This document shows, piece by piece, positions 1-18,351 of a stretch of 64,000 bases of DNA (positions within the stretch are counted from its first letter, which is position 1; each line of letters starts with the position of its first letter). The stretch is from an uncultured Clostridia bacterium (GTDB taxonomy: Bacteria; Acidobacteriota; Blastocatellia; UBA7656). Under the pieces are notes generated by a model. That model made no database searches, was not told the origin of the DNA, and saw only the letters and a program-made list of their open reading frames with translations. Location: positions 3,681 through 67,680 of the forward strand of contig CAYXVU010000003.1 of NCBI GenBank assembly GCA_964468725.1. Reading direction: 5' to 3'. Both the position numbers and the translations under genes were made by a program.

Positions 1-132
1 GCCATTTGGCCCTTTGATACTGGCATTGCCTAAGCGGTAAAGCTCTCCTGATGAGGGCTGCACGCGCTCTCGGCTCTGCGGTCGCGGATTGTTTGATGGT
101 GTGCCCATAATGACCTCTCATCCTCGCAAACC

Positions 133-882
133 TCAACGCCCCTGCCACAACCGTTCGGCTAGCGATACCGGCAAGCCTGCGGCGCTGATGGCCTGAGCGG
201 CGCGCTCAATCTCGTAATCGAGGCGCTGAATTTCGATGCGGCGCTGCACCGTATCGACCACGGCAAAGGAGGCGCGCGGGTCGCCGTCGCGCGGTTGTCC
301 GACCGAGCCAGGGTTGAGCAACACGGCGCGCGCGTTCTTTGGCCAGTAGACAGCTTCTTGCAGATTGCGCTCGGTGCAATGCTCGCCTTCCAGCCAGCCG
401 CAAAGCGGCGCGTGGGTATGTCCGCACAAGGCGAGTCGCGGCCATTCGGGGCGTGTGGCAATTGCCCTCAGATTGGCTTCCAGCATGGTGCTGGTGACAT
501 AGCCTGTGACATGCGTCTCGTTCAAGTAACAGCCATGTACGGCGATGAATTCGCCTGCTTCGATCTTCACAGGGGGCAAGGAGCGCAAATATGCGATGGC
601 GGAAGCGCTCAATTGGCTGCGCGTCCATTGATGCAGCAACCGTGCTTGCGGATTGGTGCCCGGCGCTTCCGTGTGATTGACGACATCCGCGTCGTGGTTG
701 CCGAGGACGGTTGTGGCAGAGATACTCCGCATCATCTCGATGCAGGCTTCGGGTTCGGCTCCATAACCGACGATGTCGCCCAAACAAACGATGCAATCCG
801 GTTGCGCCCGACGGATGGCTGATAACACTGCGCCGAGCGCCGGTAGATTCGCATGTAGGTCTGCAAGGACGGCGATTCGCAT
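133..882 (-). CDS. Calcineurin-like metallophosphoesterase (YfcE-like); last gene of the GTPase/roadblock operon
   Basis: 249-aa ORF. The N-terminus (LADLHAN...CLGDIVGYG) and later GNHD and GHTH motifs are typical of the metallophosphoesterase fold. Its start at 882 abuts the stop of the upstream gene at 883. Confidence 0.75.
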   Translation of the reverse strand: MRIAVLADLHANLPALGAVLSAIRRAQPDCIVCLGDIVGYGAEPEACIEMMRSISATTVLGNHDADVVNHTEAPGTNPQARLLHQWTRSQLSASAIAYLRSLPPVKIEAGEFIAVHGCYLNETHVTGYVTSTMLEANLRAIATRPEWPRLALCGHTHAPLCGWLEGEHCTERNLQEAVYWPKNARAVLLNPGSVGQPRDGDPRASFAVVDTVQRRIEIQRLDYEIERAAQAISAAGLPVSLAERLWQGR

Positions 883-2814
883 TCATACGCTCACGGGTTG
901 GCTCTGACAACGAAGGGCAAACCGGGTTAATTCGCGTTTGATGACTTGCGCTTCGGATGAACGCACCAGCACTTGTTCGAAGGCCGATTGCAAGCCGAGG
1001 CGCGTCACATCCTCGCTCGTCAAGCGCGCCAGCATCTCTTCTTCCAGCGCCTCGACATACCGATCAATTGCCCGACTCCAGTGGGCGTATTCATCCACCC
1101 GTTGCAGGAGCGCGTAGCCAATCATCGGCAAAGCCTGTCCGCTGTGAAAATCATCATCCAGATAGACCACTTGTTTATCGACGAGCGCCAGATTGCTTGG
1201 GTGCACATCAAGAACCAGTTCAGAGTGCGAAGCCAACAGCATGGCGGCCACAGCAGCGCGAGCAAACTCGGTGAGGGCATTGCCCAATGCCCGTTCGTCG
1301 CCCGCTTGATCAGCTTCCGCCATATCGAGGCGCAAGGGCTTAACCCAGGGAGCAATCGTCCATAACCAGAAGCTCTGCTCCCCATCCTGTTGCAGCGCAA
1401 GTACCGTGTTATGCAAAAGGAATTTGCCGAGCATCGCTTTGGCGCGAGCCAGCCGAATGAGGTGGCTGCGCCCTTCTTCGACATCTCGAAAGCGACGGCG
1501 CAGCGAAGTCTTCAAACACCAATTCCCCGCTTGATAGATAAAGAGATCAGAAGTGCCGCTGCCAACCTGCGAGCCGGATTGTCCGATCAAATCGTGGCGC
1601 AAATTGAGCCGCTCGGCGCGCACCATGCGGATGATGTCTCGACCGATAGCCGCAGGCCAGATGAAACCGCTTTGAATGTTTTCTTGCAACATGGGCGGAC
1701 TGAGACTCTCCGACGCCATCGTCAGGTTATGCGATTTGTCTGATGGATGCGCCATCCGGCGGTCGGCGGCGAGAGTTGATGGATCAACCTCGCTATCTGC
1801 GCTTTCGTCGGATGCAACTCGGAGAGGTTCAACAGGCGGGAGGCTGAAGGGGGCGGCTGTCTTCGGTTCGGCAATGGCAATCGAACCGATGGTCTGACCA
1901 GAGTCGGAGGGGTCGGCTGCCGCTTGTGACAAAACGGCTCCGACCGCATCGGCGGGTGCGCCTTCGTCAGTTGCCGAATTATGAGTTAAGAGATCATCGA
2001 GAGACCGTGAGAGAGGAAGCGGGTCAATCTTCTGTAAGGTTCGATAGAGGTCGTGTTCAGATTCCGGTTTGCCTTCCAGCGCGACAATTCCATGTTCAAG
2101 GATGAATTGTTGCGTGCGATTGGCCGCCGCGCGAATGGCTAAGACGACCGTTTCACGCACCCCGATGCCCTCTTGTGCGCGCGCCGGGATGATGGGAACA
2201 CGGTCATCGAGGTCTAAAGCTTGGGCGATTTGGGTCGGCGACAACGCGTCGATCACATCCTGTTTGTTGGCTTGGACGACGATGGGGATGTGCTGAGCCG
2301 AATGGGATTGCAGATAGCTGCGCAGGCGATCCAAACGTTTGCGCCCTTCTTGAACCCCTTCCGGCGTGCTATCGCAGACAAAGACGATGGTGTCGGCTTT
2401 GGTTAACAGCAGCGCGCGGCGACGTGCCAGCACCAAATGGCCCGGCGCGGTGATCAGTTGACAGCGCAAAGGATGCCCACAGACCAGCCCGCCGTCAATG
2501 TGCAACCAGTCGAAGAACAAGGTGCGCTCGTTGAGCGCCTCCGGCGTATACAGTTCGCTGCGCCGCATCAGAGTGAAGAAGTTGCAGAGTTGACGCAGGT
2601 TGGTCGTTTTGCCAGCCATCACCGTGCCGTCATAAATAATCCGCACGATCAGCCGGTGATTATCGCTATCGAATATCGCCAAATCCGTTACTCCGTCAGT
2701 TAGGGTCGGGCGTGGCCACGGCAAGTGCAGAACCTTCTCTGCACGGCGCACCAGCGCGGGTGATTGGATAGGGGCGGGCGGGGGAGAAGTCAAAAATCGG
2801 TCGGTTGCCCTCAC
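883..2814 (-). CDS. Multidomain signalling protein: N-terminal Ras/MglA-like small GTPase domain, a Ser/Pro/Ala-rich linker, and a C-terminal protein-kinase/APH-like (possibly pseudokinase) domain
   Basis: P-loop GTVMAGKTT and G4 NKQD motifs lie in the first ~230 aa. The linker is low-complexity. The C-terminal part has a catalytic-loop-like LDVHPSNLAL and a DFG-like YLDDDF. Confidence 0.55.
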   Translation of the reverse strand: MRATDRFLTSPPPAPIQSPALVRRAEKVLHLPWPRPTLTDGVTDLAIFDSDNHRLIVRIIYDGTVMAGKTTNLRQLCNFFTLMRRSELYTPEALNERTLFFDWLHIDGGLVCGHPLRCQLITAPGHLVLARRRALLLTKADTIVFVCDSTPEGVQEGRKRLDRLRSYLQSHSAQHIPIVVQANKQDVIDALSPTQIAQALDLDDRVPIIPARAQEGIGVRETVVLAIRAAANRTQQFILEHGIVALEGKPESEHDLYRTLQKIDPLPLSRSLDDLLTHNSATDEGAPADAVGAVLSQAAADPSDSGQTIGSIAIAEPKTAAPFSLPPVEPLRVASDESADSEVDPSTLAADRRMAHPSDKSHNLTMASESLSPPMLQENIQSGFIWPAAIGRDIIRMVRAERLNLRHDLIGQSGSQVGSGTSDLFIYQAGNWCLKTSLRRRFRDVEEGRSHLIRLARAKAMLGKFLLHNTVLALQQDGEQSFWLWTIAPWVKPLRLDMAEADQAGDERALGNALTEFARAAVAAMLLASHSELVLDVHPSNLALVDKQVVYLDDDFHSGQALPMIGYALLQRVDEYAHWSRAIDRYVEALEEEMLARLTSEDVTRLGLQSAFEQVLVRSSEAQVIKRELTRFALRCQSQPVSV

Positions 2815-2873
2815 CCTCTCGGATCGAAGTGAGTTGGCTCACCGCAATCCGAGAGCAGCCGAGGACGTTGGCG

Positions 2874-3278
2874 CTAGGCGGCGGCCTCAACCGCTGTCAG
2901 CGCTGTACGAGCTTTGCTTAACACCATACCGAGATTAGCCGAGATTCGACAAACCGTCACCATCACCATGTCTTCGTTGCGTTTGCCGCGCTGGAAAATG
3001 TGAATCAGATTGTCGGACAGAATGACGATCTCCTGAAAGTAATGATGCCCATCGTCCGCTACTCCGCGTGAGCGCTTGAACATCCGTTCAATCTCACTGA
3101 CGTTGGTGCCTTGAAAGATGTCGCCGGTGGCTGCGGCAACGAGGTCAAGCACTTCTTGCGGATGGCTGTCTACCGTCTTGATGGCGAGCAGCATGCCGGT
3201 TTTCATGTCAACGAATCCGGCGGCGACGCACTCGGGAACCGTTTTTTGCACGTTTGCGATTTCGTTATCTAAACTCAT
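2874..3278 (-). CDS. Roadblock/LC7 (MglB-like) domain protein
   Basis: 134 aa. The size and sequence pattern (GxxDxxTGMLL...; a hydrophobic core followed by a small C-terminal helix) are typical of roadblock/LC7 GTPase regulators. Confidence 0.75.
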   Translation of the reverse strand: MSLDNEIANVQKTVPECVAAGFVDMKTGMLLAIKTVDSHPQEVLDLVAAATGDIFQGTNVSEIERMFKRSRGVADDGHHYFQEIVILSDNLIHIFQRGKRNEDMVMVTVCRISANLGMVLSKARTALTAVEAAA

Positions 3279-3329
3279 TTTTACGCTCCTTTGCGATTTG
3301 GGTTACTGAACAGACCGTAGTTGGGGCAA

Positions 3330-3737
3330 CTAGGGGACAAGCGGCTCAATAGTTGGGATGATGGATTTTACTTGCGCCCATCCCATGCCGATATTGGTGG
3401 TCTTTTTGGTCACCAGCATGACGACTGCTTTGCCGCCTTTGATCGTTTTGGCAAAGTGAAAGTTGTGCTCGGAGGTGACGTGAACTTCCTGAAAGTAGTG
3501 CTCGCCGTTTTCCGGCACGCCGCGATGGGCGCGAACCATCTGTTCGACGCGCCCGATATTCGGGCCGCGAAACAGGTCCATGGTTGCCGCCGCCACGACT
3601 TCGTTGAGGGTTTGTGTGTACTGTGAACCGTTGTGGATGCCGAGCAACATTCCAGTATCCAGGTCTACAACGCCACAGGCAACAGCGCCATCCACTTTAC
3701 TCACTACTTCTTTACACGCATCATCTATTTTCCCCAT
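3330..3737 (-). CDS. Roadblock/LC7 (MglB-like) domain protein, paralog of 2874..3278
   Basis: 135 aa. Clearly paralogous to the adjacent gene (VVDLDTGMLLGI vs FVDMKTGMLLAI). Confidence 0.75.
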   Translation of the reverse strand: MGKIDDACKEVVSKVDGAVACGVVDLDTGMLLGIHNGSQYTQTLNEVVAAATMDLFRGPNIGRVEQMVRAHRGVPENGEHYFQEVHVTSEHNFHFAKTIKGGKAVVMLVTKKTTNIGMGWAQVKSIIPTIEPLVP

Positions 3738-3747
3738 AACATTCTCC

Positions 3748-5106
3748 TTATGATTTTTCCTGAACCGGCAGCAATCTCCGCGCTACGGTTGCCACCTGCG
3801 AACGGAAGCGCGAAACCGCGTTTCGTTCGGGCAGCACATCGGCCATCAAGAGCGCGTAATCGGCATCTCTGTTCCAGAGGATTGCGATGCCGAAATCTTG
3901 ATAAACACATTCGAAGGCGCCGGACGGAGTGGCGCCGCATAGCCCGTTGACCTGTTGCAATAGGCTGAGGGTCACGTCTGGCAACCCGGCGATGTGCGCG
4001 TCATCTTGCATCATGACCAACCGGTGATCGGATAAAGTGACGACCGCCAATATGGCTCTGGCAGCCAAATTCGGCGGTACGGCGCGAATCGCCTCCCTTC
4101 CGCGCGCGGGAATGATACCTGCGGTTTGGTTGAGGAAGTTTTCGACAAGGGGCAGAGCATCAGCGGACTTGAGAGACCCAGTATTCTTGAGGGTCTTTTC
4201 GATCAGTCCTTGTTGCAGAAGTTCATAGAAGGCTTTATAGCATTCAAATTCGGAGAGCAGGGCGCGGTTGAAAATCTCTTCGACCGTCAACTGCCCATCA
4301 ATCAATTCATAGACCTTATAAATCCGTTTGCTCAAGCGGATGGAGTTGGTATCTTCGGCGAAATCGAAGAGGCTGCTCTCCAGATCGAAATCGTCATTGC
4401 CGGTCGTCACCGGAGTGGAAATCGTCGTCTTGCGAAAGACGAGGTTCGCCGCCGGAATGACCTTTTCGATGATCGGCCACTCGTCGCTGATCTGTGCGGC
4501 TTCCATCAGTAATCGGTCAATGCTGATCGGTTGCACCGTGCCCGTATCGTATTCGACCGTGACATCCGTATCGAAGAAGAATTCGCCGTATTGCAGGCGA
4601 AAGGCATGAAACATCGCATGCTGCATCTGCGCGGTGACGCCGTCGGCGATATCATCAAGCGAGCAGGTGCCTTGACTGAGCAGAATTGACCCCAGCCGTC
4701 GCGGCGAGGCGACTTGGGCGAGCAACGCGCCTTGCAGGTCGGCAAGCGAAAGCTTACCGGCGCGCAAAAGGATTTCGCCCAAGCGATTTTTCGCTTCGGG
4801 GTCTGCCGAACTGGCCATCACCAAACAGCCTTTATCAAAGCCCAGGGTGATCTTCTCCACGTTCGATTCGACGTGCAGCAGTCCGGTCTTTTTTTGTAGC
4901 CCAATCAATTGCAAAATGTCGGGGAGAGGGAAATCTTTCAGCGTGCCTTCCAGAGCCATGGTTTTCCCTGCCCGATCAGATTGAAACGATATGGATCTCT
5001 GTTCATCAGCAGACTTCAAATATTCAGTCACAGGTTGTTCCAGTAACACAGATTTACATTGCCCTTTCCAAATAAAATCGAAAGGTGGCGAAAAAAAACC
5101 GAGCAA
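3748..5106 (-). CDS. DUF4388 (PATAN-like) domain protein with a C-terminal roadblock-like region; first gene of the operon
   Basis: The N-terminus LKDFPLPDILQLIGLQKKTGLLHVE matches the DUF4388 signature. The C-terminal ~110 aa resemble a roadblock/longin fold. It lies 10 nt upstream of the next roadblock gene. Confidence 0.55.
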   Translation of the reverse strand: MLGFFSPPFDFIWKGQCKSVLLEQPVTEYLKSADEQRSISFQSDRAGKTMALEGTLKDFPLPDILQLIGLQKKTGLLHVESNVEKITLGFDKGCLVMASSADPEAKNRLGEILLRAGKLSLADLQGALLAQVASPRRLGSILLSQGTCSLDDIADGVTAQMQHAMFHAFRLQYGEFFFDTDVTVEYDTGTVQPISIDRLLMEAAQISDEWPIIEKVIPAANLVFRKTTISTPVTTGNDDFDLESSLFDFAEDTNSIRLSKRIYKVYELIDGQLTVEEIFNRALLSEFECYKAFYELLQQGLIEKTLKNTGSLKSADALPLVENFLNQTAGIIPARGREAIRAVPPNLAARAILAVVTLSDHRLVMMQDDAHIAGLPDVTLSLLQQVNGLCGATPSGAFECVYQDFGIAILWNRDADYALLMADVLPERNAVSRFRSQVATVARRLLPVQEKS

Positions 5107-5471
5107 CCAATACCGAATCGGCTCACTATATTTTCAGGGGCAACGATGTGGGGAGGTTAAGGGACTGCCCAAACAGACACCTTATACAGGTATCATTCCT
5201 GAAAGATTACGCGTTATGCCAATTGTACCCGCGATGATCATGTCATCATGACCATCAGTCCACTGGTGCTCTTGGAAGCCTGACCAACCTGAGTATAGGG
5301 GGGAGTAACTTATTATTCCGCTCTAAAATTAACTATTCGCCGATCCCACAAAAGAATTACCATTAAGCTTTCGCTGCATCAATAGTTTTTTTTTGTTTGA
5401 GCGAGTTTTTTTTTATGATCTTCTGAGGGCAAGGGAAAGATTTGGCTGCCCTAGCGTCCGATGAGGGCTGT

Positions 5472-6662
5472 CTAAGGGGCAGCGAGCGTGCCATCACCGG
5501 CGACCTTTACGGCGGCTTGCCCGAAGTCAGCGAGCGAAAGCTGCCGGATGACTTCAATTACTTCACCCGGCGGATCGAGTTTCGGCCCGCCCGGTCGCTC
5601 TTGTTTGGCCGCCTGAATTTTACCGCCGAGAAAGCTGCCATCGAGACCGAGTCGCACCGTTAAGATCAACGACAGGCCGTTCGGGCCGCTGAGACTGAAA
5701 CGCCCATACGTGGCGAAGTTGCCGAGTGAATAGGCGATCAACCGGTTCTTGTAAACCTCCATGCCGCGCACCACATGCGGGCCATGACCAATTACCAAGT
5801 CGGCGCCCGCATCAATCATCTCGCGGCTGAAGCGCCGCAGATCGCCGCGATTCTCACCGAAGAAGATTTCCGTGCCGTACGGCACATGCTGACGCGATGC
5901 GCCCTCGGCTCCGCCATGAAACGAGACGATGATCAGATCGTTCTTCGCCGCCAACCCGGCGACCACAGCCCGTGCCGCTTCGATCTTGTTGAGGTTGTAA
6001 GACGAGTCGTAGTTCGAAAAGGCGATGAGTGCCAGCCGTCTGCCTTTGACCAGTAGTTGGGCGATGTCGCCGACGGCGCCCGAATGGGCGATGCCGAGCC
6101 CATCAAGCACGCGCATCGAACTGAGCCGACCTTCGACGCCAAAATCGAGCGCGTGATTATTTGCCAGACTCAACACATCGAACCCCGCGTCCTTCAAATG
6201 ACGACCGTAGCGGGTTGGCACGCGAAAGGCGTAGCAGTTTGCCTTGCCCGGCGGGCATTTCGTCGAGCTTCCGCCTTCGAGCATCGGCCCTTCGAGGTTG
6301 CCAAAGGCCAAGTCAGCGGCGGATAAGATGGGCGTGACCTCTTTGAGCAACTCTGCGCCGTCATTGGGAGGCAACAGCGATGCATCCGGCCAGGTCGAGC
6401 CGAGCATAATATCGCCGACAGCGGCAAAACTGATCTCCGATTCGGTCTGCACTCCGCTAACAGATGGAGGCGCAGTCGGCGTATCGGCTTCCGCCGTTTG
6501 AATGAGGGATTTTCGGGAGTCTGCTTCCGAGAAGAACCGCAAGGCAAGCAGAGTGGCGACCAGTAAAATGACAATCAGAGGGCAGGCAAGAAGAATCCAC
6601 CGTTTTGTATTCATGAGGGTTCCCACAAAGCTGACGATCTTGAGAGGTAATGCGGGGGCCAA
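5472..6662 (-). CDS. CapA/PgsA-family poly-gamma-glutamate synthesis protein (membrane-anchored metallophosphatase fold)
   Basis: N-terminal TM helix. It carries the conserved CapA motifs (GDIML...; LANNHALDFG; HGGAEG; GHGPHV). Confidence 0.8.
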   Translation of the reverse strand: MAPALPLKIVSFVGTLMNTKRWILLACPLIVILLVATLLALRFFSEADSRKSLIQTAEADTPTAPPSVSGVQTESEISFAAVGDIMLGSTWPDASLLPPNDGAELLKEVTPILSAADLAFGNLEGPMLEGGSSTKCPPGKANCYAFRVPTRYGRHLKDAGFDVLSLANNHALDFGVEGRLSSMRVLDGLGIAHSGAVGDIAQLLVKGRRLALIAFSNYDSSYNLNKIEAARAVVAGLAAKNDLIIVSFHGGAEGASRQHVPYGTEIFFGENRGDLRRFSREMIDAGADLVIGHGPHVVRGMEVYKNRLIAYSLGNFATYGRFSLSGPNGLSLILTVRLGLDGSFLGGKIQAAKQERPGGPKLDPPGEVIEVIRQLSLADFGQAAVKVAGDGTLAAP

Positions 6663-6705
6663 TCGTCAGATTCGACTCGGATCGCTAACCATTGCTTGCG
6701 GCGCA

Positions 6706-7386
6706 TCAGCGCGCATGCGAGTTGCCGATTAAGCCCGCATGCTCAGCGCGACGAATGGCTTCCAGCCGGTTATGCGCTCCGAGTTTCCGTAAAATATGCT
6801 GCACATGGTTGTTTACTGTCGTGCGGCTGATATGCAGCCGTTCGGCTATTGCTGCAGTCGAAGCCCCTTTGGCAAGCCAGCGTAGGACTTCTAATTCTCG
6901 CCCGGTCAACTCCGCTTCGCGGGTTGGAGCGCGGGTCACGGAGAGCAACGATGCGGCCTCTTCGGTCGGCATATGGGTCTCCGTTGCCACGAAATCACGC
7001 ACCAGAATCTCTAGCTTCTTGCGCACATCAATCTGGCGAACGATGTGGATAGAGGAGGGGGCGCGCGCTCCCGATTCGTGAGCCAGCAATACGGAGACGT
7101 TGCACCACCGCTTGCCTTGCGGCGTCTCCATCTGCAAGTCGAAATTTCGAATCGGATGATGTCGCTCTACCGATTGCAACACCACACATTGAGGCGAGCA
7201 AAACGGCCCGCACTCGTCTGCGCCTTTGATGATCTCTCCGCAAGCCTTGCCGATAGCCTCTTCCGCAGAGAGGTTGAAGAAGGCTGCGGCAGCTTGATTC
7301 CACGCAAAGATCAATCCTTCACTGTCAATGGCGAAAGCCGAATCGGCAGTGCTCTCGACCAACTCGATGATCTCTTGACGACGCAT
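6706..7386 (-). CDS. PAS-domain / LuxR-family HTH transcriptional regulator
   Basis: The C-terminal GRELEVLRWLAKGASTAAIAERLHISRTTVNNHVQHILRKLG is a canonical LuxR/GerE HTH. The N-terminal ~120 aa are PAS-like. Confidence 0.75.
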   Translation of the reverse strand: MRRQEIIELVESTADSAFAIDSEGLIFAWNQAAAAFFNLSAEEAIGKACGEIIKGADECGPFCSPQCVVLQSVERHHPIRNFDLQMETPQGKRWCNVSVLLAHESGARAPSSIHIVRQIDVRKKLEILVRDFVATETHMPTEEAASLLSVTRAPTREAELTGRELEVLRWLAKGASTAAIAERLHISRTTVNNHVQHILRKLGAHNRLEAIRRAEHAGLIGNSHAR

Positions 7387-7567
7387 CTTGATTCCCTAAG
7401 CGTAAACCGTTTCCTGCGTGATTATTGTTCACGATGAACCGAAAGGCAATCGCAAATCCTCCCGCCCTGCACACATGAATCAGAAAAATGATGCAATCAG
7501 ATTATTTACCCGATCTGCTGAAATAATGATGATAGCGGACAAAAAGGTAAGGTAGTCGGAATTATCC
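7387..7567. promoter_or_regulatory. Divergent promoter region between the PAS-LuxR gene and the Rrf2-led respiratory operon, with a candidate operator (inverted repeat ATTATTT-N14-AAATAAT)
   Basis: A 180-nt AT-richer spacer separates divergent genes. The inverted repeat lies ~20-60 nt upstream of the Rrf2 start. Confidence 0.3.
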
Positions 7568-8047
7568 ATGATGATTTTTTCAAAGACCACAGCTTACGGA
7601 GTTCGCGCCATGGCCTACCTCGCCATGCATCCTGCGCTGTGTGGTCTGAAAGAGATTGCTGAGAACGAAAAGATTCCCCCGGTCTACTTGCGAAAAGTGT
7701 TGGGCGAGTTGCGCAGGCATCGCCTCTTGCGCTCCGTTAGAGGATTGCATGGAGGCTATGAATTGGCTCGCGCGCCCGAAGCGATCACCTTGCTCGATGT
7801 TTTTCAGGTGTTGGAACCCGATCCTTATCTGGATGCCTGCATTTTGGGGCATGAGGTGTGTAAGGCCGAAACTGCCTGCGCGTTGCACGCGGAATGGCAA
7901 GGCGTGCGCGAAGAGATTGTCCGGTTATTGCAGAGTAAAACGATCTCTGATTTGGCACAGGCCACAGCGATAGACCGACCGGTTTCTATTACAGAGAGCG
8001 ACTCTCGTTGGGAAGCGCAGGAAAATTCGGATGAGTGGGAGCGATGA
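7568..8047 (+). CDS. Rrf2-family transcriptional regulator (NsrR/IscR-like, with a Cys-x-x-Cys-x5-Cys cluster-binding region)
   Basis: N-terminal winged-helix KTTAYGVRAMAYLA plus the C-terminal cysteine triad CILGHEVCKAETAC. Its stop overlaps the next start (ATGA at 8044-8047). Confidence 0.8.
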   Translation: MMIFSKTTAYGVRAMAYLAMHPALCGLKEIAENEKIPPVYLRKVLGELRRHRLLRSVRGLHGGYELARAPEAITLLDVFQVLEPDPYLDACILGHEVCKAETACALHAEWQGVREEIVRLLQSKTISDLAQATAIDRPVSITESDSRWEAQENSDEWER

Positions 8048-9960
8048 TGGCGGCACTGAAGACAGATGTTCCAGGCAGCACCTATCATCAAGACTTGATC
8101 GCTTGTCAGGTCGCTTGTCCTGTGCATACCGATGCCCGCGGTTATGTGCGCGCCATTGCCGAAGGGCGGTTTGAAGAAGCCTATCTCATCGCGCGTGGCC
8201 CGAATCCCTTTGCTTCGATCTGCGGACGCATCTGCGGCGCACCCTGCGAAGCGGCCTGCCGTCGCGGCAAAGTGCCGCGCGTTGATGATGATGGCAATTT
8301 TGTTGCGCAGGATCGCCCCATTGCCATTCGAGCGCTCAAGCGGTTCGCCTGCGAGCAAGCTGGCCCCGAAGCCCGACCCGCAGATGCCATTTTGCGTGCC
8401 GTACAATCCTTCACCCCGCCGATAGCAGCTTATCCTGAAGAGATGGCAGCGTTGTTGCGCGCCGCCATCGAAGGGAGATTGATTCCAGCCGCAGGCGAAC
8501 GCGTCGCTATCATTGGCGCAGGTCCGGCGGGGCTTTCCGCGGCGCACGATTTAGCCCTGTTAGGCTGCAAACCAGTAGTGTTTGAAAGCGAGCCGGTGGC
8601 CGCAGGTATGCTGGCTGTCGGGGTTCCTGCCTATCGCCTGCCGCGCGAATTGATTGCCCAAGAGATTGCTGTGATCGAAGCCCTCGGCGTCGAGATTCGC
8701 TGTGGGGTAACGATTGGCAAAGAGATTTCATTTGCCGATTTGCGCAGAGATTTCGCTGCCGTGCTGATTGCTGTGGGAGCGAAAGCTTCACGGAGTTTGG
8801 GGCTCGAAGGCGAACATGGGCCGCGCGTTTATGGCGGCGTTGATTTGCTGCGCGCTGTGGCGCTCGGCGAAGCCCTCGACATCGGCCAAGATGTAGTTGT
8901 CATCGGTGGCGGCAACGTTGCCTACGACGTTGCTCGCACCATTGTTCGCCAGATCGCCTATGATGCAGCGCGCACGGCGGCGCGCTTGCCTGCAACCGCC
9001 CGCGTGCGATTGATCTCATTGGAAAGCCTCGAAGAGATGCCCGCCGACACTTTGGAAATCCTGGAAGGCGATGAAGAGGGAATCGAACGCCACAACGGTT
9101 GGGGGCCGGTGCGGATTCAACGCGATGCACAGGGTAACGTGACCGGCGTCATCTTTCGCCAATGCGTTCGCGTTTACGATGAAGCGAGACGCTTCGCGCC
9201 GGTCTTCGATGATCGGGTCACGCAGAACTTGCCTTGTGACACTGTGCTGCTTTCGGTCGGTCAAGCGCCCGCCCTCTCCTTTCTCGAAGAGGGTGGCAGC
9301 GACCTTGAGATGATGCGTCCCGGGTGGCCGAAGGTTGATCCGACAACTTTGGCCACGACGGCAGAGGGGGTGTTTGTCGCGGGCGATTTGGCGCACGGGA
9401 CGCGATTGCTGATTGATGCCGTCGCTTCCGGCAAAGCGGCGGCGCGCTCGATCTATCAATTCCTTACAGGTCGCACGCTGCATGCAGAAGCCGTGACCGC
9501 GCATGCGGTTTTGCCCCACTACAGACGCGAGCGCGGCTACGAGGCGATTCGCCGCGTCGCCGTTCCAGTTATCTCGCCGGAATCACGCCTCGAACATCCT
9601 GATTTGGTGGTCGAACGAGGATACAGCCGCGAGGAAGCGCAACGCGAAGCCTCGCGTTGTCTCGATTGCGGCGTCACGCCGGTCTTCGATGGCAGCCGTT
9701 GTGTGTTGTGCGGCGGGTGCGCGGATGTTTGCCCGACCGAATGTTTGAAACTGGTTGCCCTCAGCGATCTGGATTTGACCGGAGAGTTGACCGCTGCGGT
9801 TGAAAACACGTTCGGCGCGGAGGTGGATCTATCAGAGCATTCGGCCATTCTCAAAGATGAAGATCGTTGCATTCGTTGCGCCTTGTGTGTGCAACGCTGC
9901 CCGGTTGAAGCCATCGCGATGGAGAGGGTGACATTCACCAGTGTTTGGAGGTCGCAATGA
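8044..9960 (+). CDS. GltD-like (glutamate synthase small-subunit family) FAD/NAD(P)H oxidoreductase fused to a C-terminal 2x[4Fe-4S] ferredoxin domain
   Basis: GltD-type N-terminal Fe-S region (CQVACPVHTD...CGRICGAPCEAAC). Rossmann motif VAIIGAGPAGLSAA. Two CxxCxxCxxxCP motifs at the C-terminus. There is an alternative GTG start at 8035. Confidence 0.75.
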   Translation: MMAALKTDVPGSTYHQDLIACQVACPVHTDARGYVRAIAEGRFEEAYLIARGPNPFASICGRICGAPCEAACRRGKVPRVDDDGNFVAQDRPIAIRALKRFACEQAGPEARPADAILRAVQSFTPPIAAYPEEMAALLRAAIEGRLIPAAGERVAIIGAGPAGLSAAHDLALLGCKPVVFESEPVAAGMLAVGVPAYRLPRELIAQEIAVIEALGVEIRCGVTIGKEISFADLRRDFAAVLIAVGAKASRSLGLEGEHGPRVYGGVDLLRAVALGEALDIGQDVVVIGGGNVAYDVARTIVRQIAYDAARTAARLPATARVRLISLESLEEMPADTLEILEGDEEGIERHNGWGPVRIQRDAQGNVTGVIFRQCVRVYDEARRFAPVFDDRVTQNLPCDTVLLSVGQAPALSFLEEGGSDLEMMRPGWPKVDPTTLATTAEGVFVAGDLAHGTRLLIDAVASGKAAARSIYQFLTGRTLHAEAVTAHAVLPHYRRERGYEAIRRVAVPVISPESRLEHPDLVVERGYSREEAQREASRCLDCGVTPVFDGSRCVLCGGCADVCPTECLKLVALSDLDLTGELTAAVENTFGAEVDLSEHSAILKDEDRCIRCALCVQRCPVEAIAMERVTFTSVWRSQ

Positions 9961-10442
9961 CAACCAAAGCCAGTCCCGAACAATCACGACTCGACCCGGA
10001 GCCGATGCCGCGCAGAGATTTCCTCGGACTCTCGGCACTACTGGCGGCGGCTTCGTCCATGCTGTTTGCCGTCTTTGGCATGTTGCGATTGCCGAAGGCG
10101 GCAGTCCTGGCATCGCCTTCGAAAAAGTTCAGCGTGACGCTGCCCGATGCGCTCGCGCCGAACGAGCCATTCGTTCCGGCTGGCCGCGCCGTCGCGCTGT
10201 TCAAAGATGATGAAGGCGTCTATGCCCTCTCGACCATCTGCACCCATCTCGGATGCGTCGTGAAACCATCGCCGGAAGGATTCGAATGCCCATGTCATGG
10301 CTCAGGCTTTGCTCTAAACGGAGCCGTGACAAAAGGGCCAGCGCCGCGCGCTCTGCCTTGGCTGAAGGTCAGCAACTCAGGCAACGGCTGGGTGGTGGAT
10401 GAAGGCACGACCGTGCCTGCTGGTTCAAAGGTGAAAGCATGA
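9957..10442 (+). CDS. Rieske [2Fe-2S] protein with twin-arginine signal (RRDFLG)
   Basis: Rieske boxes CTHLGC and CPCHGS. Tat motif at the N-terminus. ATGA overlap with the upstream gene; a TTG start at 9945 is also possible. Confidence 0.85.
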   Translation: MTTKASPEQSRLDPEPMPRRDFLGLSALLAAASSMLFAVFGMLRLPKAAVLASPSKKFSVTLPDALAPNEPFVPAGRAVALFKDDEGVYALSTICTHLGCVVKPSPEGFECPCHGSGFALNGAVTKGPAPRALPWLKVSNSGNGWVVDEGTTVPAGSKVKA

Positions 10443-11992
10443 AGAGCATCGCGCCAACCGATTCGGCTCTGCGAGAGTTTTGGGAGAATCTGCGCGCCGC
10501 GCCGCGCCGCCTCTATGATTCGGCCTTTCGCGGCGGCGTACCCAAGACGGATCGCACCCGCTCGACATTTGTCTTCGGCAACGTCTTCTTACACCTGCAT
10601 GCGGTGCGCGTGCATCGTTGGAGCTTGCGATGGACGACGACGGCGGGACTCGGCATTGCCAGCACCGCAGCCTTTGTCGTCACGCTGGTGACCGGCGTGC
10701 TGTTGATGTTCTATTACAAGCCCTACCCCGAAGCCGCCTACGATTCGATCAAAGATATTCACTTCGTTGTGCCGACCGGACGCTTCATTCGCAACATTCA
10801 TCGTTGGGCGGCAAACGTCATGGTCGTCGCCGTCATTTTGCATATGGCGAGGGCGTTTTATACGGCTTCGTATCGCAAGCCGCGCGAGTTCAATTGGCTG
10901 GTTGGTTGGGGGTTGCTGGTTACGACGCTCGGACTCTCGTTTACGGGATACCTGCTGCCGTGGGATCAACTGGCCTATTGGGCGATTACTATCGGCGCGA
11001 ATATCGCGCAATCGCCGCGTGAAATCACCGACGCCATTGGCATCACCGAAGCCTTCGACCCCGGCGGATTGCAACGCCTCTTGTTGCTCGGCTCCGATAC
11101 GGTAGGCGATGAAGCGTTGATTCGCTTCTATCTGCTACACGTCATGATTTTGCCGTTGATCTTGACGATGTTGATGGCCGTACACTTCTGGCGCATTCGC
11201 AAAGACGGAGGCATTGCGCGGCCTGCCGATGCCGATGCGCGACTATCGCCGCCGGAGAAAGCGACCTATCCGGTATTCACCGAAGCGCCGACAAAGACGT
11301 ATCATCTGGCCGCCATCGTGCGCGGCAAGACATCTGCCGTCGGCAATTCGCCGGAGAACACCGTGCCCTCCATGCCGCATCTGTTTTATGCCGAGTTGGC
11401 CGTCCTGATGATTACCATTTTGATCTGTCTGGCGCTGGCCATCATGGTGGATGCGCCGCTCAAAGAGCTAGCAAACCCTGCGGTTCCGGAAAATCCTGCG
11501 AAAGCGCCTTGGTACTTTCTCGGATTGCAAGAGATGGTTTCGTTCTCCGCTTTTATGGGCGGCATCGGCATTCCGACCATCGTGCTGGTCGGTTTGGGAT
11601 TGATTCCGTTTCTCGACCGTGAATCGTCCGGTACGGGCGAATGGTTCGGCGGGCCGGGCGGTTGGTCATTGGTGAAGCGATCAATCGGGGTTGGCCTGAT
11701 TGCCGCTTTGGTCGTCGAAGCCATCGCCATTCGCTTCGGTTGGATACGGGAATGGTTTCCCAACGCGCCGCAGTTGCTTATCACCTTTATCAATCCCGGA
11801 ACCGTTCTGACCTTGATCTACGCGGCGTACTCGGTATGGTGCGTGCGCCGCTATAACTCGACGCGGGCGGGGGCATTGGGATTGTTCACCTGTTTCCTTT
11901 GCGGATTTTTGTTGCTGACCATCATCGGCACCTATTTTCGCGGGCCGAACTGGGTCTTTTACTGGTCGCCCGCTCAATGGCCGGGGCATTAA
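10439..11992 (+). CDS. Cytochrome b (long form; b6 plus subunit-IV-like fusion) of a Rieske/cyt b complex
   Basis: 517 aa, multi-TM. It has conserved haem-ligand histidines in NIHRWAANVMVVAVILHMARAF and LLHVMILP...HFWRIRK. ATGA overlap with the Rieske gene. Confidence 0.85.
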   Translation: MKSIAPTDSALREFWENLRAAPRRLYDSAFRGGVPKTDRTRSTFVFGNVFLHLHAVRVHRWSLRWTTTAGLGIASTAAFVVTLVTGVLLMFYYKPYPEAAYDSIKDIHFVVPTGRFIRNIHRWAANVMVVAVILHMARAFYTASYRKPREFNWLVGWGLLVTTLGLSFTGYLLPWDQLAYWAITIGANIAQSPREITDAIGITEAFDPGGLQRLLLLGSDTVGDEALIRFYLLHVMILPLILTMLMAVHFWRIRKDGGIARPADADARLSPPEKATYPVFTEAPTKTYHLAAIVRGKTSAVGNSPENTVPSMPHLFYAELAVLMITILICLALAIMVDAPLKELANPAVPENPAKAPWYFLGLQEMVSFSAFMGGIGIPTIVLVGLGLIPFLDRESSGTGEWFGGPGGWSLVKRSIGVGLIAALVVEAIAIRFGWIREWFPNAPQLLITFINPGTVLTLIYAAYSVWCVRRYNSTRAGALGLFTCFLCGFLLLTIIGTYFRGPNWVFYWSPAQWPGH

Positions 11993-11996
11993 GGCG

Positions 11997-13652
11997 ATGA
12001 ACAAGAGCAAACATTTACTCTTATGGTCGAGCATTGGCGTGCTGACGCTGCTTATCGTTGCCGCTGTGGATGAGAACTATTGGAAAGAGTGGCGGCGCAT
12101 TCAAAAAGCGACGCGTTCGGCAGAAGGCGCGATTGATGTGCGCTTGCGGCAAGTCATCAATCCCGGACTCGCAATCTCTGACCGCTGCGTTTCGTGTCAC
12201 GTTGGGATGTCGCCGGGAGAGCAAGATATATTCGGCGCCTCAGTCGTTGCGCCGCACAAACCCGTCGTGCATCAACCAACCGAGATGGGTTGCACCATCT
12301 GTCATGGCGGGCAGGGACGCGCGACGGACAAAGCCGATGCGCACGGCGCTGTGCGATTTTGGCCGCAGCCGATGTTGCCGACAAAATACAGCTATGCGGG
12401 ATGTGGAACCTGCCACACCCCTCTACATATCCCCAGTCGGGTGGCGCTTGAGAAAGGGCGCAGCGCATTCGAGCGATTGGATTGTTACGCCTGCCATCGG
12501 TTGGACGGACGCGGCGGCACGCTGCGCCCTGGCGGCGGCGGGATGGAAGGCCCGGATTTATCGCATGTCGGACTGAAAGGCTTTGATGCGGGCTGGTATG
12601 ACAAACACCTGAAGAGTTACGAAGGCGCAACCGCCGGAACCTGGCGCGATGCGTTCGGGCCGATTGATGAAAGCGAGCGTCAAGCGCTGAGTCTTTTTCT
12701 CTCTTCGCGCATCGGCGCGCCGCGACTGATCGAAGCCAAGGCGCTGTTCAACTCGGTCGGCTGTTTGGGCTGTCATAAAGTGGGTGGTACGGGTGGCGAT
12801 GCCGGACCCGATCTGTCGCGCAGCGGCGAACGCGACCCCGGCCAACTCAATTTCACGTCGGTCAAAGGCGAACATACGTTATCGAATTGGTTGGCGGAAC
12901 ACTTTCGCTCGCCGGTCGCCACCGTACAAGGGTCGCAAATGCCGATGCTCGGGTTGACGGAATCCGAGATTGACTTGTTGACCCTGTACACGTTGTCGCT
13001 GCGGCGCAGAGAGCTGCCGAGCGTCTATCTGCCAAAAGATCGCGTGCAGGCGATGCGGTTTGGCGAGCGCGAATTTGCTACTGATGGGGCGACCGTCTTC
13101 AGCGCCATCTGCGCGGGCTGTCACGGTCGCGATGGCAAAGGCATACGCTACCCCGGCGTGCCACCCTTTCCTTCGATCATCAATCCCGATTTTTTAGAGC
13201 TTGCTTCCGATGAATTTATCGTGCAGACGATTACCAAAGGTCGCTCCGGTCGCAAGATGTTAGCGTGGGGCGAAAAAGAGGGTGGCCTGCGCCCCGACGA
13301 GATCAGAGCCGTTGTCGGGTATTTGCGACAAGCCGCAGGCAACATCGCAGCCAAACCGGAGACCGAGCCGCCGCGTTGGGTCAGAGGGGATGTGAAGTTG
13401 GGCAGCCGCCTGTTTACCGCCAACTGTGCGGGGTGTCACGGACAGAGAGGTGAAGGCGGCGAAGGCCCTGCGCTCAATAACAAAACCCTGCTCGGTTTTG
13501 CCACAGATCGCTTCTTGGTTGACACCATCAGTCGCGGGCGCAGAGGAACAGCGATGCAGAGTTTTCTCACTCCTTCGCCGGTTCGCGCTGCGCTCACGCC
13601 ATCGGAGATCGAAACCATCGTCGCGTTCATCCGCACTTGGGAGGGTAAGTAG
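11997..13652 (+). CDS. Membrane-anchored heptaheme cytochrome c (N-terminal tetrahaem module plus three class-I monohaem domains)
   Basis: Seven CxxCH motifs (CVSCH, CTICH, CGTCH, CYACH, CLGCH, CAGCH, CAGCH). N-terminal TM helix. It starts 5 nt after the cytochrome b stop. Confidence 0.8.
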
Positions 13653-13656
13653 AGTT

Positions 13657-16600: not shown

Positions 16601-17100
16601 TTCGCGGTTGGCAAAATAACCAACGCGATTACGAATTCGCCCGCTTATTGTGTCGGGCGCGCTATTACCCCGGCACGCCGCGCGGCGTGACGCGCATGTG
16701 GTTCAACATGTACGGGGCAACGCCGGGGTCGCAACAGGGGCAACGCGAGCGCAAAGATGGACTCGCTAAAAACCCGCGCACGAACTATCAAGCGATGTTT
16801 CGTTCGGGTTCGCATCAATCGGCGACGCGCGGCTGGCTGAAGCCGACCTGGATGACCGATTCGCTGGTCAGAAAAGGACTCTTCGGGCAGGGGATTGGCA
16901 AAGGCTTTTTGCCCGATGTGCATTGCCCGACCGGCGCGCCGCGCGAAGCGATTGTCAAGATCAGCCGCGCCGAGCCGGGCGGCATTGAGGGCAAAGGGTT
17001 GTGGCGTCCCGCAGAACTTGGCATCCGACCCAATTACGAATCGCAAGAGATGCAGAGATACCTCGCCGGTCAATTCATCAGTGACGGAAAGGAGAAATAG
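13657..17100 (+). CDS. Tat-exported molybdopterin oxidoreductase catalytic (alpha) subunit, type II DMSO reductase family (periplasmic NarG/NxrA-like)
   Basis: 1147 aa, counted from the [11 protein letters not shown] start; this is the correct reading frame of the longer ORF listed in the track. It has an SRREFF twin-arginine signal, an N-terminal C-X3-D-X3-C-X39-C cluster motif, and a Nar/Nxr-like length. It is followed directly by its beta subunit. Confidence 0.8.
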
Positions 17101-17102
17101 CT

Positions 17103-18254
17103 ATGGCTCGCGTTTACAACTGGCAACTCGGAAGGCAGATGTCCTACTGGTATCCTGAAAGTCGCCCGCAAAAACAGTTCGCGGCGGTCTTTGACATCAA
17201 TAAATGCATCGCGTGTCAAACCTGCACTTTGGCCTGCAAGACGACGTGGACATCAGGGCAAGGGCAAGAGTACATGCTTTGGAACAACGTCGAGACCAAA
17301 CCTTATGGCTTCTATCCGTTGGCCTGGGATTTGAAACTTCTCGAAAAACTTGAAGGGCAGAATTGGGCGACCGGCGAATACGAAGGACGCCCGACTCACA
17401 CCTACGAAGGGCGCACCATCTTTGAAGCCGCCCCGCCCGGCGAGCGCGTTTTAGGATGGAGGCCGGAAGATCAAGACTACGCCTATCCCAACGTCGGCGA
17501 AGACGATTGCGCGGGGCAGATCGAACATGGCGCGAGTTTGCAAGTGCCGCATATGAACTGGTTTTTCTATCTGGCGCGCATTTGCAATCACTGCACCTAT
17601 CCTGCCTGTCTATCATCCTGTCCACGCGGGTCAATCTATAAACGACCGGAAGATGGCATTGTATTGCTCGATCAAGGCCGCTGTCGCGGCTATCAGGAAT
17701 GCGTCAAAGCCTGCCCGTACAAGAAGGTCTTCTTCAATGCGCTGACCGGCACATCGGAAAAATGCATCGCCTGTTTTCCGAAGATTGAACAGGGGTTGCA
17801 ACCGCAATGCTTCGTCAACTGCATCGGCAAGATTCGCTTGGCAGGTTGGATTTCGCCTCCCGATAAAGCCAAAGCCGATAACCCGATAGACTATCTTGTA
17901 CACATTCGCAAAATCGCATTGCCGCTCTTTCCGCAATTCGGCTTGGAACCGAACGTCTATTACATCCCGCCGATTCACGCGCCCGCATCGTTTCTGCGGC
18001 AGATGTTCGGGCCGGGCGCAGAAGAGGCTGTGAAGACTTACCGACAAGCCGCACAAGACCCGGAACTCTCCGGCCTGCTCGGACTCTTTGGCTCGACGGA
18101 GATGGTGATACCCAAATGGCGGCGGCAAGGTGATCGAGTGATTGGCATAACCGAATCGGGCGCGGAGGCCGTGCGAGTGCCGCTGCGGGAGCCGATTCAG
18201 ATTCGCCCGGCCTACGATCAGTTGTACCAGATTTCGCGGGTGAATTGCCCGTGA
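17103..18254 (+). CDS. Iron-sulfur beta subunit (NarH/NxrB-like, four Fe-S cluster motifs) of the type II DMSOR enzyme
   Basis: [38 protein letters not shown] and [11 protein letters not shown]...C. Good RBS. It starts 3 nt after the alpha subunit stop. Confidence 0.8.
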
Positions 18255-18351
18255 GGGCATGAAAGCTGAGATAGGAGAATCGGCGCAAAGGTTCAACCAG
18301 ATTTGCGGACGGTTCACAGAGTCGCATCCGCGAAGCGAAGAAGGAGGCTGT

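Follow-up and report, generated by a model that had tools for sequence, protein, structure and literature searches.

MglA-family GTPases, among them those of Myxococcus xanthus and Thermus thermophilus, have been treated as switches of a single domain (~195 amino acids, aa) that act on free effectors. In the MglB system the partner is one homodimer, and an MglB dimer seated on one MglA activates hydrolysis by positioning the GTPase's own Arg and Gln (PMC4316618; PMC11016934). A PATAN-domain protein has already been described near some MglA/MglB loci (PMC4316618; 10.1101/2021.06.11.447907), and the main survey of the family, by Wuichet and Søgaard-Andersen, excluded sequences longer than 240 aa (PMC4316618). 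Here we describe an operon from an uncultured bacterium of the Acidobacteriota (Blastocatellia, UBA7656; GenBank assembly GCA_964468725.1, contig CAYXVU010000003.1), located in a 64,000-nucleotide (nt) stretch at positions 3,681 to 67,680 of the forward strand, hereafter called the window. In this operon an MglA-family GTPase domain is joined, within a single 599-aa protein, to a C-terminal domain with a predicted kinase-like fold, and the fusion gene is accompanied by genes for a PATAN (DUF4388) protein, two small roadblock-like proteins (Rbl1 and Rbl2), a metallophosphoesterase and a putative ATPase-phosphatase.

An initial annotation of this DNA, made from its letters and open reading frames (ORFs), had proposed a five-gene signalling operon in an arrangement that it did not recognise as described. 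The finding is real and that interpretation was essentially right; in the literature we likewise found no description of an MglA-kinase-like fusion, of DUF4388 with MglA or roadblock proteins, or of the present operon. What was known already is the PATAN-MglB-MglA neighbourhood, and what is new is the covalently attached, orphan kinase-like output domain together with two phosphatases. As far as we know, the conserved fusion would be the first prokaryotic MglA switch with a built-in enzymatic output, and it would offer a simple bacterial system for the control in cis of a kinase fold by a Ras-like domain, a problem unresolved for LRRK2/ROCO proteins. It would also extend the protein-kinase-like (PKL) folds by a new branch, orphan in sequence, that comprises about 250 clusters at 50% identity, and it suggests a candidate route from cyclic di-GMP (c-di-GMP) to protein phosphorylation. 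If that route is true, c-di-GMP signalling would be linked to Ser/Thr/Tyr phosphorylation via a small GTPase, which is of relevance to the study of bacterial small GTPases, kinase evolution and c-di-GMP signalling alike.

An MglA-family GTPase domain

The first domain of the fusion protein had been annotated as Ras/MglA-like, and it can be assigned specifically to the MglA family. Against PDB sequences, the family profile matched T. thermophilus MglA (3t12) at E=6.8e-50 and M. xanthus MglA at ~4e-42, with Arf-like proteins at 2.8e-12 (Arl1) or weaker; Pfam returned a partial Arf match only. The P-loop and the NKQD motif are both present. In the 599-aa numbering used here for residues of the fusion protein, the intrinsic Arg finger R53, T54 and T78 are numbered exactly as they are in M. 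xanthus MglA, and in the T78-A-P-G segment of the window protein Thr replaces the Asp of the G3 motif, which is a hallmark of MglA. These features extend through 150 relatives. R53 is kept in 144 of them (96%) and T54 in 147; position 78 is Thr in 123 (82%) or Ser in 24 (16%); G19, K25, N139 and D142 show no variation, and 94% have K140. The catalytic Gln82 is found in 135/150 (90%) and is His in 6/150. By profile and by these residues, the N-terminal domain is a true MglA-family GTPase.

The Rbl2 and Rbl1 genes lie directly upstream, which makes this a "coupled" GTPase, having a roadblock gene within four genes of MglA. With two domains and 599 aa, the protein falls outside the single-domain range of 150-240 aa that defines MglA in the survey (PMC4316618), and the exclusion of sequences above 240 aa would therefore have kept it out of that survey.

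A predicted kinase-like domain at the C-terminus

The GTPase domain is followed, as first proposed, by a low-complexity linker of ~111 aa, recognised by its composition, the length and sequence of which are not conserved among homologues. The domain beyond it, residues 332-599, has no match in Pfam or NCBIfam. A profile of 36 family sequences reached E=0.073 at best against PDB sequences, in unrelated proteins, and the 36 members scanned singly against Pfam at E<=10 gave no kinase family. A phmmer search of 1.84 billion representative proteins returned 252 matches, all of them the family itself. Nearly all of these relatives carry the domain C-terminal to a GTPase domain, a few in tandem duplicate, and more than 150 N-terminal residues precede 139 of 162 family domains. 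At locus L013 (2306-3906) and in proteins P0095, P0098, P0162 and P0166, a single GTPase domain is followed by two or three kinase-like domains in tandem; at L013 a degenerate copy precedes an intact one, forming a pseudokinase-kinase tandem.

Kinase-likeness, which no sequence profile detects, is seen at the level of predicted fold and motifs only. The AlphaFold2 model of the domain (80 homologues) has a pLDDT of 93.9 and a pTM of 0.90, and the top 50 Foldseek matches in the PDB are all kinases (E from 1.5e-4, probability ~1, TM-scores 0.29-0.46), in keeping with the kinase-like fold that had been read at this position. They include the RNase L pseudokinase domain, MAPK, AAK1/GAK/BIKE, VRK2 and PRPK/Bud32, together with PknB/PknI/PknG, Wee1, CSK and maltokinase, and the best TM-score belongs to PRPK. 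Since the TM-scores are modest, the relationship to known kinases is distant. The elements of the model follow in the canonical order β1, Gly loop, β2, β3 with its Lys, a long αC, β4, β5, a long αE, a short strand, D-V-H-P-S-N, β7, β8 and Y-L-D-D-D. The next helix comes only ~9 residues past DDD, and there is therefore no long activation segment.

The motifs singled out in the initial annotation (GTVMAGKTT, NKQD, LDVHPSN and YLDDDF) are all found in the translation, and the catalytic Asp and Lys that it marked for checking are intact, as is the Asn: the window protein carries β3 Lys391, Asp492-x-His-Pro-x-Asn497 and Asp509/510. The β3 Lys lies in a predicted strand at residues 68-73 of the domain, a position that is Lys in 124 of 163 domains (76%) and Arg in 21 (13%). 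D-V-H-P-S-N stands directly after the strand that follows αE, with the Asp kept in 81%, the His in 79% and the Asn in 82% of the same 163 domains. The Asp residues of YLDDD lie 17-18 residues past the catalytic Asp, and the DFG-like D190 is kept in 91%. The Gly residues of GSGTSD, between β1 and β2, are kept in 131/163 and 118/163; model residues 50-55, which include the G-S of this motif, are the sole internal part of low confidence. A conserved acidic residue (D/E in 142/163), a possible partner of the β3 Lys, stands at the start of the αC-equivalent helix, and a conserved Arg follows it. The degree to which the Lys, Asp, Asn and DFG-like Asp are kept makes these catalytic residues look to be under selection, and by its residues the window copy holds everything needed for predicted Mg-ATP binding and phosphotransfer. 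Still higher conservation, of ~100%, is found at W22 and P23 of a GxxWPAxxGR element and at W121 in a WLW core, also where catalytic residues have been lost. Lying immediately ahead of the kinase N-lobe, GxxWPAxxGR may be where the G domain makes contact. From the model we conclude that the C-terminal domain represents a branch of the protein-kinase-like superfamily that is new and, at the level of sequence, orphan.

Two roadblock paralogs

The two small proteins had been named roadblock/LC7 paralogs. Sequence methods barely detect this identity: among 34 members scanned, Pfam gave no Robl_LC7 match and a weak MAPKK1_Int match only (E=0.029), and the roadblock family profile reached MglC at E=0.2 only among PDB sequences. 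The question was therefore settled by structure prediction. The AlphaFold2 model of Rbl1 (pLDDT 85.9) matches a Streptomyces Roadblock/LC7 protein (3kye, TM-scores 0.71/0.79) in Foldseek, as well as MglC (7ct3), many chains of MglB (6hjm/3t12, including chains in complexes with MglA), 1j3w, Asgard roadblocks and LAMTOR subunits, with TM-scores of 0.6-0.8, those to Roadblock/LC7, MglC and MglB being 0.64-0.79. Rbl2 is 33-35% identical to Rbl1 with reciprocal phmmer matches, and its fold is taken from this paralogy. Both small proteins, on the model and the paralogy, are roadblock-fold paralogs, as the name had implied.

MglA is usually more conserved than MglB, a pattern that is reversed in these operons. 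Proteins of the Acidobacteriota and Myxococcota loci (L001-L024 and L074) have a median identity to their window counterparts of 81% (Rbl1) and 77% (Rbl2); the G domain, the kinase-like domain and the phosphoesterase reach 50%, 45% and 51%, respectively. The high conservation of Rbl1 and Rbl2 suggests that the roadblock pair forms the hub of a complex.

The PATAN protein and a c-di-GMP motif

The first gene of the operon encodes a protein that matches Pfam DUF4388 (PF14332) at E=3.3e-27, with 95.4 bits against a cutoff of 25, which bears out its description as DUF4388/PATAN-like. It consists of a PATAN domain with an insertion, a weak region resembling a winged helix-turn-helix, and a C-terminal domain of ~110 aa. 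The α-helical insertion, an "α-clip" of the kind seen in PatA-type proteins, reads RLGEILLRAGKLSLADLQGALLAQ-VASPR-RLGSILLSQGTCSLDDIADGVTAQ, that is, two 24-residue motifs with a spacer of exactly 5 residues. The MshEN motif for c-di-GMP was defined as a tandem 24-residue RLGxx(L/V/I)(L/V/I)xxG(L/V/I)(L/V/I)xxxxLxxxLxxQ with a 5-residue spacer by Wang et al. (PMC5013675). Both motifs in the window protein, which the initial annotation overlooked, keep R-L-G, LL, G, L/I, L/V and Q and deviate at position 11 (K or T). With 37.6 bits (E=1.4e-9), the match to NCBIfam NF053729, an MshE-related c-di-GMP model, falls just short of the cutoff of 38, and among relatives of the protein the two LG pairs never vary and the terminal Gln of either motif hardly does. 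From this conservation, PATAN proteins of the present family are predicted to be c-di-GMP receptors. That the PATAN insertion resembles the N1 domain found in type II secretion and type IV pilus ATPases has been noted (10.1101/2021.06.11.447907); a statement that the insertion binds c-di-GMP was not found in the literature.

The neighbourhoods of two related loci fit a c-di-GMP input. At L074, genes for a stand-alone receiver (REC) and an EAL protein, a c-di-GMP phosphodiesterase (8829-9979), lie directly upstream of the PATAN gene with a 21-nt gap, and at L001 REC and EAL genes (2928-4201) are found ~3.5 kb upstream of it. The first 20 kb of the window contain no EAL gene.

The PATAN protein varies in its ends. 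The window protein has no receiver domain, unlike PatA-type regulators, and in many related loci its counterpart is a REC-PATAN-roadblock protein with a C-terminus detectably homologous to Rbl1 and Rbl2. The operon-linked subfamily (P0338-P0344, with full-length relatives P0339-P0344) has a distinct C-terminus of ~110 aa, which we examined as a third roadblock; its predicted topology looks roadblock-like, but hhalign was not significant with the single sequence or with a 7-sequence profile. Most PATAN-MshEN relatives (P0345-P0457, mainly of Thermoanaerobaculia) differ in ending with a transmembrane segment and a pseudopilin-like PF08334 domain, which we take to be T2SSG, with a DPWG..Y.Y motif. 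By its domain content, this ending points to a link between these relatives and the type IV pilus/type II secretion machinery.

Phosphatase genes and conservation of the operon

The metallophosphoesterase identification stands: Pfam Metallophos_2 matches at 4e-21 and Metallophos at 1.7e-15, and the translation contains the motifs DLH (DxH), GD, GNHD, VHG and GHTH. Among solved structures 3rqz is the nearest (E=9.5e-40), with SapH (3qfm) and an Ap4A hydrolase (2qjc) next. Beyond the phosphoesterase gene begins a sixth gene, the first 36 codons of which align with the N-termini of the genes that follow the phosphoesterase at L001 and L074, sharing ASIKGP and LYxL/LFEI. By this alignment it is a homologue of a fusion of an ABC-like ATPase with a DSP-type phosphatase. 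The L001 orthologue matches Pfam Tc-R-P (3.8e-24) and PTP-SAK (2.8e-18), and has an ABC_tran Walker A region and an HCxxGxxR motif. Such an ATPase-phosphatase fusion is itself an uncharacterised kind of protein.

A locus scan restricted to one genome per species yielded 71 loci, from Polyangiaceae, Kofleriaceae, Nannocystaceae, Sandaracinus, Labilithrix, Thermoanaerobaculia, Vicinamibacteria, other Acidobacteriota and one metagenome-assembled genome (MAG) of Gemmatimonadota. The synteny survey that had been proposed as a check found the gene order of the operon in ~20 loci, in Acidobacteriota and polyangial Myxococcota, and this recurrence is far beyond chance. The full order was read in L001, an Acidobacteriota MAG, and in L074, a JGI metagenome contig, and is identical in the two: PATAN, a 135-aa Rbl, a 134- or 136-aa Rbl, the MglA-PKL fusion, a 249-aa phosphoesterase, the ATPase-DSP phosphatase, and an MFS transporter.

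We mapped six components on these loci and read the catalytic signature of the kinase-like domain, classing it as intact (K-D-H-N-D-D) or degenerate. All 20 loci with an intact signature carry the phosphoesterase and/or the DSP phosphatase, and 18 have both Rbl genes; the other two are L011, which is truncated on the left side, and L010, where a single Rbl gene was detected. Among 37 loci with a degenerate signature, the corresponding numbers are 3 and 3. Fisher tests of intact against degenerate loci give p ~1e-12 for the phosphatases and 7e-10 for both Rbl genes, but the loci are not phylogenetically independent, and the co-occurrence is therefore a sign of consistency rather than proof. Among cultured organisms, Nannocystis and Plesiocystis have degenerate, pseudokinase-like forms, and the intact form is so far known from MAGs only; Pendulispora and Enhygromyxa also hold relatives of the fusion protein. 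Degenerate forms still adjoin PATAN proteins, often REC-PATAN-Rbl, and the pairing of PATAN with MglA-PKL is therefore older than the phosphatase-containing operon.

Comparison with described systems

The initial annotation likened the locus to MglA/MglB polarity systems and to actinobacterial conservons. The first comparison holds for the GTPase, which shares R53, T54, T78 and the numbering of position 82 with the MglA of M. xanthus and T. thermophilus, and for the roadblock-fold partners, which structurally match MglB and MglC. The differences are considerable. In place of a free effector, a kinase-like domain of ~270 aa is covalently tethered to the GTPase; in place of one homodimer there are two distinct roadblock paralogs, conserved at 77-81% against 50% for the GTPase; and these have no Robl_LC7 match. 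Two phosphatases are co-encoded, position 82 is His and not Gln, and no RomR or RomX was seen. Conservons (CvnA-D/Mfp) likewise combine an MglA-family GTPase, a roadblock protein and an ATP-using signalling enzyme in a conserved operon, but neither a CvnA-type histidine kinase nor CvnC (DUF742) is present among the operon genes or in related loci. The present operon is not a conservon: its GTPase falls in the Thermus/Myxococcus-like branch, which has an intrinsic Arg finger, and the taxa are others.

The architecture had also been called ROCO-like, a term that holds as an analogy. As in ROCO proteins such as LRRK2, a Ras-superfamily GTPase and a kinase fold share one polypeptide, implying intramolecular coupling. 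Membership in that family was rejected: the Pfam matches at E<=1 were limited to Arf, GTP_EFTU and SRPRB, Roc and COR not being among them, and it is a disordered linker that follows the G domain. COR, LRR and a Roc-type G domain are absent, and the kinase-like part is a minimal orphan family rather than a TKL kinase. Roco was placed in another clade than MglA by Wuichet and Søgaard-Andersen (PMC4316618). The likeness of the fusion to ROCO proteins is convergent, not homologous.

A likeness of another sort exists to the Rag GTPase-Ragulator (LAMTOR) system, in which a heterodimeric roadblock pair, a small GTPase and kinase control come together. The Rbl1 model matches LAMTOR/MP1-p14 structures, and the only Pfam hint for Rbl1 is MAPKK1_Int. 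The analogy is one of logic alone, with no sequence relation beyond the roadblock fold, another GTPase family and another kinase. The kinase-like domain itself resembles Bud32/PRPK, RIO and APH/UbiB-type kinases in its compact bilobal fold without a long activation loop and in its D-x-H-P-x-N loop, but it has no detectable sequence-profile similarity to them, and it alone has the GxxWPAxxGR element and is fused to a GTPase.

A possible GTPase-gated signalling module

We read the operon as a GTPase-gated atypical kinase signalling module, and consider the chances for and against this to be evenly balanced. In such a module, Rbl1 and Rbl2 would form a heterodimeric, MglB-like regulator of the MglA domain, acting as a GTPase-activating protein and/or a guanine nucleotide exchange factor, in what would be an elaboration of the asymmetric 2:1 MglB:MglA complex. 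Which nucleotide the G domain has bound would determine how active the tethered kinase-like domain is, or whether it has access to its substrate, perhaps through the nearly invariant GxxWPAxxGR element. Input would be provided by the PATAN protein, through binding of c-di-GMP to the MshEN-type insertion in the window and through phosphorylation of an N-terminal receiver domain in other loci. The metallophosphoesterase and the DSP-type phosphatase would reverse phosphorylation, of which the possible substrates are the protein itself, its Ser/Thr-rich linker, or a partner. We put forward only tentatively, as a somewhat doubtful extension, that the operon is an independently evolved bacterial counterpart of eukaryotic GTPase-gated kinases, with the logic of LRRK2/ROCO and Rag-Ragulator-mTOR: an MglA switch, set by a heterodimeric roadblock pair and by a PATAN sensor of c-di-GMP or phosphorelay signals, would turn a tethered and hitherto unclassified protein kinase on and off, with two phosphatases as erasers.

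Several observations weigh against gating of a kinase by the GTPase. At the position of the catalytic Gln the window protein carries H82 (2437-2439, minus strand), a His shared by P0002, the closest homologue aligned; its hydrolysis chemistry, and hence its GTPase cycle, may be atypical. The PGH motif formed there recalls the catalytic His of translational GTPases. Minimal kinase folds such as Bud32 and RIO are often ATPases rather than kinases. The nearest characterised relatives of the phosphoesterase are nucleotide/Ap4A hydrolases and not protein phosphatases, and the loci with an intact signature are one another's closest relatives, essentially a single clade. Finally, the 191-nt gap that precedes the fusion gene leaves room for separate transcription.

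Some of these points are shared by the alternative that the C-terminal domain is a nucleotide-binding pseudokinase, or an ATPase-type effector or scaffold like Bud32/RIO, which docks according to nucleotide state and phosphorylates no substrate. The two phosphatases would then act elsewhere, for example on nucleotide messengers (Ap4A, pGpG, c-di-GMP products), as the relatives of the phosphoesterase that hydrolyse nucleotides would suggest. The best TM-scores (0.40-0.46) are to the minimal kinase PRPK/Bud32, with the RNase L pseudokinase domain also among the best matches, and the short interval from DDD to the next helix is in line with such a role. The most conserved residues, W22, P23 and W121, are non-catalytic and persist in relatives that have lost the catalytic ones, and the role that the domain had ancestrally and that its members share may therefore be other than catalysis. 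Yet the full K/D/H/N/D/D set is strictly kept in the 20 loci of the window's own clade, which is hard to explain without catalysis or Mg-ATP binding, and it is specifically in that clade that a DSP-type protein phosphatase domain is encoded alongside. We regard this alternative as unlikely, though worth keeping in view.

It is less easy to argue that the domain is a small-molecule kinase of the APH/UbiB kind, which would act on a metabolite, lipid or sugar, with the phosphoesterase and the DSP phosphatase as matching phosphohydrolases and, in Acidobacteriota, a downstream MFS transporter to move the compound. The D-x-H-P-x-N loop is nearer to the APH/UbiB type than to the D-L-K-P-x-N of Ser/Thr kinases, maltokinase is found among the fold matches, and in L001, L074 and L075 there is an overlap between the genes for the MFS transporter and the phosphatase. 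Against this, the top fold matches are eukaryotic-type protein kinases. An MFS gene occurs in only 4 of 20 intact loci (L001, L009, L074 and L075), none of them myxobacterial; L074 and L075 are unclassified metagenome contigs, and the named sources of MFS-bearing intact loci are Acidobacteriota. Fusion to a polarity-type GTPase and partnership with roadblock and PATAN proteins are, moreover, typical of protein-level signalling and not of metabolism, and we find the small-molecule alternative quite improbable. That the genes are merely adjacent, the 191-nt gap before the fusion gene parting a PATAN-Rbl1-Rbl2 unit from a fusion-phosphatase unit in an operon deduced from sequence, is very improbable indeed, given the same order in ~20 loci of two phyla, a gap of ~55 nt at L013, no terminator- or promoter-like sites in the gap, and public Rbl and fusion genes that repeatedly lie on contigs of the same recorded length.

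Gene boundaries and surroundings

An ORF listing of window 1-9000 contains five consecutive minus-strand ORFs (3748-5106, 3330-3737, 2874-3278, 883-2814 and 133-882), the five genes of the operon as first drawn. The unit has at least six: co-directional genes fill window 1-4959 on the minus strand, and the last of them, missed initially, is cut by the window edge. The earlier coordinates are those of maximal ORFs, not gene calls, and two starts have to be moved. The GTPase-kinase protein, given as 643 aa, almost certainly starts at TTG 2682 and has 599 aa, because all homologues begin at the equivalent MA[IV]FD, a GGAG lies 8 nt upstream, and P0001, a public gene call of 599 aa, matches it with 100% identity. 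The PATAN gene, drawn from 5106 (452 aa), starts at ATG 4959 and encodes 403 aa, as in the 100% identical P0338. The features of the locus are listed in Table 1.

Table 1. Genes, domains and motifs of the operon in window coordinates.
Feature	Position	Strand	Basis
Sixth gene, first 36 codons	1..108	-	ATG at 108, 24 nt past phosphoesterase stop
Calcineurin-like metallophosphoesterase, 249 aa	133..882	-	Pfam
MglA-GTPase / linker / kinase-like fusion, 599 aa + stop	883..2682	-	single uninterrupted ORF
Predicted protein-kinase-like (PKL) domain, residues 332-599, 268 aa	886..1689	-	AlphaFold2 + Foldseek
YLDDDF (DFG-like Asp)	1147-1164	-	motif conservation
Catalytic loop LDVHPSN	1192-1212	-	motif conservation
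β3 CLKTS	1504-1518	-	motif conservation
Gly loop GSGTSD	1546-1563	-	motif conservation
GxxWPAxxGR element	1639-1668	-	motif conservation
Low-complexity linker, Ala/Ser/Pro/Asp-rich, ~111 aa	1690..2022	-	composition
MglA-family G domain	2095..2682	-	profile vs PDB
NKQD	2257-2268	-	translation
G3 motif TAPGH	2437-2451	-	translation
R53-T54 (E-R53-T54)	within 2509-2529	-	translation
P-loop GTVMAGKTT	2602-2628	-	translation
Intergenic gap, 191 nt, roadblock-2 to GTPase gene	2683..2873	-	
Rbl2 (roadblock paralog 2), 134 aa	2874..3278	-	paralogy with Rbl1
Rbl1 (roadblock paralog 1), 135 aa	3330..3737	-	AlphaFold2 model + Foldseek
PATAN/DUF4388 protein, 403 aa	3748..4959	-	Pfam DUF4388
MshEN-type double motif in PATAN insertion	4627..4785	-	translation
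AT-rich upstream intergenic region, 512 nt, presumed operon promoter region	4960..5471	-	GC content

With the corrected starts the intergenic gaps are 10, 51, 191, 0 and 24 nt, and the stop codon of the fusion gene directly abuts the start codon of the phosphoesterase gene. The description of the genes as all tightly spaced applies to four of these gaps and not to the 191 nt before the GTPase gene. In close relatives aligned, the equivalent of this gap varies from ~55 nt (L013) to 190 nt and contains no conserved sequence, and a search of the gap and the whole region against Rfam gave no credible known RNA. Promoter- and terminator-like sites were no more frequent than in shuffled sequence and were absent from the coding strand of every intergenic gap, and scans for sigma-70 and sigma-54 consensus sequences, the region upstream of the PATAN gene included, gave chance level only; a split of the operon by such sites, which had been named as grounds for abandoning the initial reading, was not found. 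The 512 nt upstream of the PATAN gene are, by composition, likely to be the operon promoter region, with GC = 0.448 in window 5001-5500 compared with ~0.51-0.62 elsewhere in the first 12 kb.

A defence system was considered and rejected, PADLOC giving no match for the five window proteins. The genes that flank the operon are unrelated to it and encode a PGA_cap protein, a PAS-LuxR regulator, Rrf2 and a redox-enzyme cluster. The last of these, a respiratory-type redox complex cluster at window 8035-19206 on the plus strand with the Rrf2 regulator in front, comprises a Fer4/Pyr_redox protein, cytochrome b, a multi-haem cytochrome c, a 1224-aa molybdopterin oxidoreductase, a Fer4_11 subunit and an EB_dh-like subunit.

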